This document shows positions 10,349 to 14,175 of a stretch of 25,617 nucleotides of DNA, one piece after another. The DNA is from a virus (lineage: Duplodnaviria; Caudoviricetes). Position 1 is the stretch's first letter. Each line of letters opens with the position of its first letter. Where the stretch lies: IMG/VR virus record IMGVR_UViG_3300025803_000088, positions 1-25,617 of that record; one strand, given 5' to 3'. Both the position numbers and the translations under genes were made by a program. The notes beneath the pieces are model-generated. The model was not told where the DNA came from. It did no database searches and worked only from the letters and a program-made list of their open reading frames with translations.

Positions 10349-10539
10349 TGCAGCGTCCAGATCCAATGATCGCCGCTAAGCCTGGTGCGGAGGATGTCCA
10401 GGCTATGGCGGCTAGAACGCTGTGGCTTGAAGAGCTGTACTTCCTTGATGGCCGTGACCAGATCAGCCATCCTCAATATGGTTTGTTCACAGGTCTGGCT
10501 CTGAAGTATCAGAACTTGACTTCGACTGACGGCATCTGA
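10348..10539 (+). CDS. Hypothetical phage protein
   Basis: 63 aa (MQRPDPMI...LYFLDGR...HPQYGLFTGL); TGATG coupling at both ends. Confidence 0.7.
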   Translation: MQRPDPMIAAKPGAEDVQAMAARTLWLEELYFLDGRDQISHPQYGLFTGLALKYQNLTSTDGI

Positions 10540-10664
10540 TGGCTAAGTCACTTAGCGGACAAAATTTTGTCCCTAGCAAGCCAAAAAAGACACGTCAAGG
10601 TAATGGATCACATTCCAAACCGTCCCATGGACGGAAGAAGTATCGTGGCCAGGGAAAACGCTAA
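10539..10664 (+). CDS. Small basic protein (41 aa, ends KKYRGQGKR); not in the ORF track
   Basis: Reads MAKSLSGQNFVPSKPKKTRQGNGSHSKPSHGRKKYRGQGKR*. ATG overlaps the upstream TGA, and the KKYRGQG ending is recurrent in marine phage microproteins. Confidence 0.75.
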   Translation: MAKSLSGQNFVPSKPKKTRQGNGSHSKPSHGRKKYRGQGKR

Positions 10665-10675
10665 TTCTCCTTCCA

Positions 10676-11017
10676 ATGTTCAAACTTCTCATTGCGAGTG
10701 GTGTCGTCGTTTCAGCAGCTGTGCTGGCATCTCCTGCTCAAGCCGACTGGTACGTCAACCCTGAGCTGAACATGTCAGCTGGGCTGGATTCTGGAACGGG
10801 ATCAGGCATTCTCGAAGGTCACATTGGGTATGACTTCGACAACGGTGCCTACGTGCAGGCTGGTCCTGCTGCAATCTTCCCTGATGCAGGTGACAAAGAG
10901 ATCGAGCTGACCGGCAAAGCTGGTATCAGCGGTGGTCCTCTTTACGGTGAGGTTTCTTTCAGCACTGGCGATGAAGTCGGCCTTGGTTTCAAGACTGGAG
11001 CCAAGTTCAGCTTCTGA
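10676..11017 (+). CDS. Secreted small outer-membrane beta-barrel-like protein
   Basis: Signal peptide ending ASPAQA, alternating hydrophobic beta-strands (WYVNPELN, LEGHIGYDF, AYVQAGP, LYGEVSF) and C-terminal GAKFSF BAM-type signal. Confidence 0.75.
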   Translation: MFKLLIASGVVVSAAVLASPAQADWYVNPELNMSAGLDSGTGSGILEGHIGYDFDNGAYVQAGPAAIFPDAGDKEIELTGKAGISGGPLYGEVSFSTGDEVGLGFKTGAKFSF

Positions 11018-11030
11018 GCTATAACTAAAT

Positions 11031-11089
11031 CGTCTCCTCACACAGACGGCAAGGAGCCCCCGTACTTGTGCAGAGCGCGGGGGCTTTTT
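11031..11089 (+). ncRNA. Candidate Yfr1-like small RNA
   Basis: TATAAC -10-like box at 11020-11025. Hairpin CGTCT/AGACG displays CCTCACAC; TCTCCTCACAC matches the Yfr1 motif ACTCCTCACAC at 10/11. Ends in an intrinsic terminator; about 58 nt. Confidence 0.55.
11055..11089 (+). terminator. Rho-independent terminator
   Basis: Stem AGCCCCCG (11055-11062) / CGGGGGCT (11078-11085) followed by a T-run. Confidence 0.75.
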
Positions 11090-11105
11090 GTTGACCCAAA
11101 CGATT

Positions 11106-11345
11106 ATGCAAAAGGTCTACAACGTGCTCGGCGTGCTGGGCTTCGTGATGTCTGGAACGTTGGTTGGGCTGAGCATTGCTGCTTTTGCTCGCATCCCAGG
11201 ATGGATTGATGACTACGCAGCAACCATTACTGATGACATCACTGGTACGGTGACTGAAATGGTGCCGGGTCAAGTTGAAGAACTGATGCCTGAGATCCCT
11301 GAGCTACCTAAAGCAACTGGTCCTGCTATCCCATCTATTCAGTGA
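11106..11345 (+). CDS. Single-pass membrane protein, hypothetical
   Basis: MQKVYNVLGVLGFVMSGTLVGLSIAAF hydrophobic N-terminus and Pro-rich C-terminus (ELPKATGPAIP). Confidence 0.7.
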   Translation: MQKVYNVLGVLGFVMSGTLVGLSIAAFARIPGWIDDYAATITDDITGTVTEMVPGQVEELMPEIPELPKATGPAIPSIQ

Positions 11346-13457: not shown

Positions 13458-13684
13458 CCGTTGACCGTTGTGTTGGAGACGGGGTTAATTGCGCCGTCTG
13501 GCTTGATGTTTACACCGCTAGCACTGTATTCAAACCCCGTTGAATAGTTCTCACTGACAATCGTCTCAGTGACCTTACTGGTTGTCTCTGTATGAGACGA
13601 CATTGTGCCCTGCGTGAAGTTGGGGATCACAGGAACAGCGTGAGCCGCTGGAGCGGATAGCAACAGCAGCAGAAGCCAGCGCAT
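13292..13684 (-). CDS. Secreted Thr/Ser-rich beta protein, hypothetical
   Basis: Signal peptide MRWLLLLLLSAPAAHA, mature VPVIPNFTQG...; coupled to the upstream stop. Confidence 0.8.
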   Translation of the reverse strand: MRWLLLLLLSAPAAHAVPVIPNFTQGTMSSHTETTSKVTETIVSENYSTGFEYSASGVNIKPDGAINPVSNTTVNGWTSLGERPNWSIVKPGEAFQFVESLKGPGLSNVTTIQRTTEITSVTDTVSSFSE

Positions 13685-14175
13685 CACTTGATGGTGATTT
13701 CAGTCACGAGCTGACCTACAGCCAGCGTGTTTGCTCCACCACCAACGATTGTCATGCCACCGTCAGAGGAGATCGTGCCTGCCAAGTCACCTGCCGTGCC
13801 AGAAGCCGTGGATGTCAGGCTGCCGAAGTTGCCAACAGCGCCAGTGGTGACAGCGGATGTTGGAACGGCATCAGCTTGGCGGTAGGTCTGGCTAAAGGAG
13901 AACGCATCCCCTGGAACGTCTTGCGTTGCGGAGATCGTGCCGGGTGCGTAAACACCGCTAGTAATCGTGCCAGCAGAAACTGTGTTGGCGGTAGTGCCGT
14001 CAGTTGTGTCGATGTTGGTGCCGGAGATGCTGAACGAAGAGCCAATCCGTTCTGCTGTGGTTACAGCACCACCGACTTGCAGCTGAACCGACGACATGAT
14101 TTTGTGCTGGAGATCAGCACGGGCAGGCAATCCAGCTGCCAATGTGATGCCCAATACCAAAAGTGTCCGGGTCAT
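13684..14175 (-). CDS. Secreted Gly/Thr/Ser-rich beta protein, hypothetical
   Basis: Signal peptide MTRTLLVLGITLAAGLPARA; ATGA overlap with the upstream gene. Confidence 0.8.
   Translation of the reverse strand: MTRTLLVLGITLAAGLPARADLQHKIMSSVQLQVGGAVTTAERIGSSFSISGTNIDTTDGTTANTVSAGTITSGVYAPGTISATQDVPGDAFSFSQTYRQADAVPTSAVTTGAVGNFGSLTSTASGTAGDLAGTISSDGGMTIVGGGANTLAVGQLVTEITIK

Follow-up and report, generated by a model that had tools for sequence, protein, structure and literature searches.

An outer-membrane protein gene and a candidate small RNA in the window

The stretch of DNA analysed here (the window) is a single virus record of 25.6 kb, with lambda-like tail genes, a primase gene and an endolysin-like gene. 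On its + strand, at 10676..11017, lies an open reading frame for a 113-aa secreted, beta-rich protein that matches Phage_OMP (PF24653; PHROG 417) at E 3.5e-16, which gives a family to the secreted beta-barrel-like gene noted in the original prediction. The product of this gene (hereafter OMP) has a signal-peptide-like N-terminus and a C-terminal Phe, and its stop codon is at 11015-11017. In its AlphaFold model (pLDDT 70.5) the mature part of 90 aa is predicted to form six strands, whereas the smallest outer-membrane protein barrels known have eight. Foldseek returned no fold match for the model at E<=0.001, and the protein's atlas features point to the KdgM-domain, OMP_b-brl and YfaZ beta-barrel clusters (0.93-0.94).

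The OMP stop codon is followed directly by GC-TATAAC (11018..11025, + strand), a predicted –10 box that is conserved among related phages and has no –35 box. As expected for a missing –35 box, a sigma-70 scan called no promoter at the unit; both the box and the missing –35 box are as originally described. Behind it we predict a small RNA of 58 nt (11032..11089, + strand), a delimitation that relies on the spacing between box and start purine and on the fold. The RNA would begin with a 5' hairpin, GUCU/AGAC (11032..11047, + strand), whose loop carries the seed CCUCACAC (DNA CCTCACAC; 11036..11043, + strand), which is complementary to the GUGUGAGG present at Yfr2 5' ends and in the leaders of host som porins. 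The RNA would end with an intrinsic terminator-like hairpin and U run (11055..11089, + strand), comprising a GC-rich stem and a T5 ending at 11089, and this terminator would end the OMP message as well. The scan also reports a terminator-like site at 11065-11081. The earlier picture of a self-contained unit of ~58 nt with its own terminator is supported. The 5-bp hairpin CGTCT/AGACG of that picture is present at 11031-11048, but only four of its pairs fall within an RNA that starts at the predicted position. Folding of 11032-11093 gives two hairpins with a total energy of -32.7 kcal/mol (z -5.4; 0/200 shuffles as good), a stability that comes mainly from the terminator, the small hairpin alone being weak (z -1.45).

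The motif in the loop region, TCTCCTCACAC, agrees with the published Yfr1 11-mer ACUCCUCACAC (PMC2190773) at 10/11 positions, as the original prediction had it. Since the 10-mer CTCCTCACAC is also present in 18/300 shuffles of the window, this match by itself may be due to chance. Assembled contigs from eight of 21 RNA runs cover the OMP gene and the unit, and one bridges 10943-11092; these runs were selected with the window, their contigs may derive from DNA, and RNA ends are invisible in them.

The gene downstream of the unit (11106..11345, + strand; PHROG 568, labelled plasmid stability) provides context only, and other genes take its place in some relatives. Two further features of the neighbourhood may be recorded. 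A very basic 41-aa open reading frame lies just 5' of OMP (10539-10664) and ends in KKYRGQGKR, an ending found again in most phage OMP leaders, and the PHROG 564 gene at 13684-14175, called OMP1 in several cyanomyoviruses, encodes a second putative outer-membrane protein.

The OMP reading frame matches 218 GenBank phage records, 214 of which are named Synechococcus, Prochlorococcus or Cyanophage, and among cyanophages the tail J protein is matched best, at ~33%, by Prochlorococcus phages, namely P-HS2/MED4-184 and MED4-117. From these two observations we infer that the host is a picocyanobacterium; marine Synechococcus, suggested by a GC content of 51%, is a guess. P-HS2 and MED4-117 have tail genes and local gene order in common with the window, yet carry neither OMP nor the unit. 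No close cultured relatives were found, and the window primase has no match among GenBank phages.

Conservation of the unit downstream of phage OMP genes

Two protein-led scans of IMG/VR yielded 77 and 80 overlapping loci, the second set being the best 80 of 433. The 152 loci in which the OMP end was complete and followed by another 80 bases reduce to 84 distinct 60-mers after the stop codon, which we compared with 601 control post-stop 60-mers. YTCACAC occurs in 65/84 of the post-OMP sequences and 3/601 controls, a degree of conservation that shows the motif not to be there by chance. The corresponding counts are 68/84 and 6/601 for TCACAC, 44/84 and 0/601 for CCTCACAC, and 20/84 and 0/601 for CTCCTCACAC; TCACAC is found in 20/27 clusters at 80% identity and 8/13 at 70%. 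The two positions 5' of TCACAC hold C or T in 65 of the 68 sequences.

Of the 66 units folded, 63 place the motif within the loop of a hairpin, although the loop in question differs by family, being that of the 5' hairpin in some and that of the terminator in others. For the small stem, an alignment of 18 hand-picked two-hairpin sequences has 2/3 counted pairs changing on both sides, with 100% of cells paired; because these sequences are related, the shuffle counts for this alignment are not probabilities. An invariant seed on covarying stems had been proposed as a check on the original prediction: the stems differ or covary and the TCACAC half of the seed is nearly invariant, but the longer CTCCTCACAC is not. 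The 16/84 post-OMP sequences without TCACAC include some that retain box and terminator. L021, L022, L034-L041, L028, L056 and L068 keep box, start purine and terminator with a degenerate seed, which in two of them reads TTACAC.

A box of the form TAnnn(T/C) follows the OMP stop in 77/84 sequences and 24/27 clusters, against 89/601 controls. Where several boxes fitted, the one with G two bases upstream was preferred, and one subfamily was placed by eye. A purine stands exactly 7 nt behind the box in 77/77 sequences (74 of them G) and 24/24 clusters, against 46/89 controls, and in the two-hairpin families this purine is the first base of the first hairpin. Given the fixed position of the purine in all 24 clusters, we consider G11032 the likely start of the RNA. 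Taken at the level of sequence, the unit is real and conserved, and is probably a phage RNA gene with its own transcription.

The predicted RNA and the OMP gene occur without each other

The original prediction cast the unit and OMP as parts of one RNA-plus-protein module. Among the 119 matches listed from a pattern scan, 19 are OMP-adjacent by HMM and 2 more have OMP-type flanks, 21 are AT-rich units and 77 look chance-like by eye. The AT-rich phages (33-38% GC) carry a unit of identical geometry with the full Yfr1 11-mer behind a divergent gene, and have homologues of the window's genes at 13-14.6 kb. In one such AT-rich genome of 40.6 kb, rated 100% complete, the unit is present and no OMP match was found, while two control records were positive. 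The AT-rich unit has no match among GenBank phages. The AT-rich units behind the divergent gene make up two further families (L171, L193-L195, L208, L234, L237, L565). A third context, likewise without OMP (L566, L568, L569, L571, L573), is a 42-nt unit in phages of 53-55% GC, again with the full Yfr1 11-mer and unchanged box-to-start geometry, behind a 252-aa gene that probably encodes a major tail protein.

Conversely, the motif was found directly behind the OMP stop in 0/12 GenBank myo- and podovirus OMP genes, and across five whole myo/podovirus records it has 3 matches against 4 for a control pattern. With the RNA occurring without OMP and OMP without the RNA, an obligatory module is so far not supported: their pairing, as far as gene content reveals it, is common in one lineage and not obligatory, and OMP is a frequent neighbour of the RNA rather than its required partner.

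Different structures accompany OMP elsewhere. Syn33 (L080) and P-TIM68 (L083) have another hairpin, GAGACC-loop-GGTCTC, just after the OMP stop, which has no Rfam match, and the myovirus OMP leaders of L079, L080 and L083 have in common a structured motif containing CATCCG, without an Rfam match at the gathering score. In L579 (around G217:16371-16403), OMP lacks the downstream motif, and three tandem intergenic copies of ACTCACAC occur with 13-nt spacing; these could be a multi-site sponge.

The OMP gene itself appears, from its distribution, to be almost exclusively a phage gene. A match was found in 2/201 host-family genomes, of which one lies in what reads as a phage capsid-psbA region and the other is a 67-aa fragment, and a pattern scan found no host origin for it. 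In one host-family genome bin (L448, G099), capsid, OMP and psbA genes occur together in a segment of phage-like character, likely as contamination or from an infected cell.

Comparison with known small RNAs

The unit had been described as a Yfr1-like RNA, and a search with the Rfam Yfr1 model was the suggested check. The RF01116 covariance model has no hit at E<=10 in the window and none in five other phage loci, while host Yfr1 controls score 58.6-69.2 bits. Against the whole of Rfam, no family reaches its gathering score in the window, where the five hits at E<=10 are unrelated and due to chance, and 20 OMP loci yield no relevant match. The likenesses to Yfr1 (RF01116), as far as it is described in the parts of PMC2190773 and PMC2796815 available to us, are the 10/11 motif bases, the length, the terminator hairpin and the predicted som targets. 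The perfect ACUCCUCACAC 11-mer is absent from the window and is full in its AT-rich relatives. However, in the Yfr1 so described the motif lies in an unpaired linker of 16-20 nt between two hairpins, whereas the phage motif lies in a loop; and Yfr1 stands at guaB-yfr1-trxA, whereas the phage unit is flanked by PF24653 and PHROG 568.

A Yfr1 motif in a loop atop a stem is what defines the Yfr10-like class in the accessible portion of PMC6778093. That arrangement is common to the phage unit and to Yfr10, Yfr12 and Yfr18 of Prochlorococcus MED4 (PMC2518516, PMC6778093, in part), the phage motif having one mismatch. In both, sequence, structure and position are otherwise poorly conserved, and pairing with Yfr2 is predicted. 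The phage unit differs from the Yfr10-like RNAs covered by those excerpts in being a phage-encoded, predicted RNA, in its motif, often shortened to YUCACAC, and in its place behind an OMP gene rather than beside yfr2. The lack of an Rfam match and the wrong architecture lead us to conclude that, judged by sequence and predicted fold, the unit is not Yfr1 but Yfr10-like; of the earlier assignment, the Yfr1-type seed stands.

The nearest functional precedent, going by what the available text of PMC12197685 and PMC10690425 says of it, is IpeX of E. coli phage PA-2, likewise a small RNA associated with the gene for a phage outer-membrane protein; IpeX lowers a host porin, an effect that for the phage unit is predicted only. 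The candidate small RNA accompanies 65/84 of the OMP 3' regions, its linkage not being obligatory. The same text describes IpeX as a processing product of the phage porin transcript and reports no complementarity to ompC. The phage unit, by contrast, comes with a predicted promoter of its own and a direct host-regulator seed, in phages in which an integrase was not found. The anti-sRNAs of EHEC phages, such as AgvB (PMC4104026, in part), are phage RNAs too, with the potential to titrate a host sRNA, which in the present case would be Yfr2; the phage unit differs from them in copying the host regulator itself, in having another host and in the lack of prophage evidence.

No phage-encoded RNA with the Yfr1/Yfr10 motif was found in a literature search that took in the accessible parts of PMC9964418, PMC7368042, PMC5069720, PMC6596454 and PMC12197685, among others, and few subscription papers. 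PMC10690425 catalogues candidate RNAs of viruses; six of its supplements contain no match to the motif, and three large ones could hold it.

Predicted partners in the host

The window seed is complementary to GUGUGAGGA, with core GTGTGA. Among 57 distinct som-type porin genes of host-family genomes, 50 have GTGTGA no more than 25 nt from the start codon (consensus GTGTGAGGA); by contrast, GTGTGA or GTGAG was found in 0/70 distinct phage OMP leaders. Pairing energies were computed with our own script, which evaluates ungapped helices plus opening energies and is not IntaRNA. Between the window RNA and 24 porin leaders the median energy, with accessibility taken into account, is -6.5 kcal/mol, a value matched by 3/155 control leaders, and the same script found no interaction with the phage's own OMP leader. 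In all 26 seed contexts the porin median is better than the control 5th percentile. The original proposal that the RNA represses porins or titrates Yfr2 thus gains predicted complementarity to both the porin ribosome-binding site and Yfr2.

Published work (PMC2796815, in part) found two som 5' UTRs to be repressed by Yfr1, by factors of 3.0 and 2.7, through the UCCU of its motif, and this repression is reversed by Yfr2 (PMC6778093, in part). The UCCU is intact in part of the phage family only (CTCCTCACAC and CCTCACAC being retained at the frequencies given above, 20/84 and 44/84). Host Yfr1 is already abundant (same portion of PMC6778093), which makes the gain from an added seed less evident.

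Interpretation and alternative explanations

We judge it somewhat better than an even chance that the unit, as a conserved phage gene, encodes a Yfr10-like RNA of likely ~58 nt, and that the seed in the loop of this RNA is predicted to lower translation of som porins during infection. By pairing with GUGUGAGG, the ribosome-binding site on som porin messages, the seed CCUCACAC would block their translation as host Yfr1 does. Binding to Yfr2 would act in the same direction, by freeing host Yfr1/Yfr10, so that direct repression and Yfr2 titration would each lower porin output. The phage OMP, which has no target site in its leader, would escape.

We see a lesser though serious possibility that the RNA chiefly soaks up host Yfr2, as a sponge would, with indirect effects on porins and on carbon and nitrogen genes. 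The sequence GTGTGAGGAG, a 10-bp match to the window seed, heads 16/29 Yfr2 copies, and the median energy of the window RNA with the 29 Yfr2 heads is -7.75 kcal/mol against -6.5 for porins; these heads (RF01701) were extracted on the requirement of GTGAGGA or GTGTAGGA. By hybrid energy, Yfr2 is equal to or better than porins in 22/26 seed contexts (better in 10, equal in 12, worse in 4), although our energy model has no power to separate the two as partners. The available part of PMC6778093 also describes Yfr2 outcompeting an mRNA target for Yfr1/Yfr10 in vitro, and the full 11-mer is retained in the OMP-free AT-rich units. The pattern of conservation argues the other way. GUGUGA, which faces the conserved half of the seed, is present in 50/57 porin leaders and 17/29 Yfr2 heads, while the half that would pair with the GGAG of Yfr2 is the variable one: the bases that extend pairing into it vary, with CTCC retained in 20/84, and the variants GUUCCUCACAC, GUCCUCACAC and GGUUCUCACAC extend the pairing with porin leaders instead. 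As an aside, a Yfr2 copy is convergent with the 3' end of rplL in many host genomes (L387/L434, L369/L446).

It is improbable, in our estimation, that porins are not the selected target at all, and that the seed acts on the broad Yfr1/Yfr10 regulon or binds a host protein recognising looped UCACAC. Sites of the form GTGTGAGR-N2-12-ATG number 15-25 per genome in four host genomes, against 3-6 for a control pattern, and the published pull-downs, so far as PMC6778093 was available, returned 206 mRNAs with Yfr1 and 253 with Yfr10, in different target sets; porins may therefore be one target among many. A protein-binding role has been proposed for Yfr1 (PMC2190773, in part), and the three tandem ACTCACAC copies of L579 also speak for this reading. 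Against this, the C or T at the positions facing GG (65/68) is what G:C/G:U pairing predicts, and the link to the OMP gene, together with motif copies at host porin 3' ends (18/55), points to the envelope.

We think it more improbable still that the unit is merely the 3' end of the OMP message, that is, a terminator with an inherited or stabilising motif that does not act in trans. The unit does adjoin the stop codon, the motif is present in host porin 3' UTRs, and it has been lost in some lineages; yet the start-site geometry holds in all 24 clusters, the phage OMP leader offers no pairing site for action in cis, and the AT-rich unit cannot be a 3' UTR because the gene ahead of it is divergent.

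Another possibility is that the hairpin imitates the anticodon arm of tRNA-Val(CAC) and so serves as a decoy, either for a nuclease that attacks the anticodon or for RNAs antisense to tRNA-Val carried by competing cyanophages. In its favour are the host arm, which reads CTTCC-TTCACAC-GGAAG, the 25/66 units able to form a 7-nt loop on a stem, TTACAC (the other Val anticodon) in two clusters and the wide occurrence of the antisense head in viral contigs. We regard it as very improbable, given that the window has the 8-nt loop CCUCACAC rather than 7-nt UUCACAC on a 5-bp stem (family loops are 4-11 nt), that the first loop base is C in 58/68 rather than the U of the tRNA, that the 5' flank is like Yfr1 and unlike the tRNA, that pairing of the antisense head with the window 5' hairpin, at -13.0 to -14.5 kcal/mol in three examples, is weaker than the medians for porins (-17.0) and Yfr2 (-19.2), and that the tRNA pattern is absent in 17/61 host-family genomes, all of 1.6-2.0 Mb, while AT-rich phages still carry the unit. 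The antisense head is an observation in its own right: 14 nt antisense to the tRNA-Val(CAC) arm occur in at least 120 viral stretches (L585-L704), in many of them between a –10 box and a terminator.

Returning to porin repression, the original prediction saw in it a means of superinfection exclusion. Tyrosine integrase (PF00589) and resolvase (PF00239) were found in 0/5 complete genomes, with controls positive in 14/14 and 12/14 respectively, and our literature search found no paper showing porins to be cyanophage receptors. Neither result favours that proposal; a lytic phage may nevertheless exclude superinfecting phages, and the envelope swap or exclusion part of the reading is speculative.

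Origin of the seed and implications

YTCACAC lies within 90 nt of the stop codon in 18/55 host porin genes, all of them in loci of at least 55% GC; the control count is 21/399, which is inflated by the choice of some loci. In Synechococcus/Cyanobium-type som porin loci (L450-L479, L510-L549), the CCUCACAC of the 3' UTR is complementary to the gene's own ribosome-binding site, and none was seen in low-GC loci. Such a 3'-UTR seed and its own ribosome-binding site may form a self-limiting porin circuit, a possibility read from their complementarity. The host also has units that stand alone and whose boxes or terminators resemble those of the phages (L371, L376, L382). The phage probably acquired its seed from this host circuit of Yfr1, Yfr10 and porin 3' UTRs, to the extent that shared motifs can indicate descent.

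A fuller scenario, which we offer tentatively and think unlikely as a whole, is that marine cyanosiphoviruses captured a porin-control seed and tuned it to shut GUGUGAGGA of som porins, some lineages evading Yfr2, and that their own immune OMP takes the assembly capacity so freed, which would remodel the surface of the infected cell and close it to rival phages.

Should the prediction for the RNA hold, phages of the ocean's dominant phototrophs would steer host expression by a copied sRNA seed, beyond the auxiliary metabolic proteins, a case without parallel in the literature that we searched. The 26 natural seed variants, which separate pairing with porins from pairing with Yfr2, would bear on the question of which partner the ultraconserved Yfr1 motif serves. 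Also at stake is the role that som porins, or outer-membrane assembly, may have in cyanophage infection.
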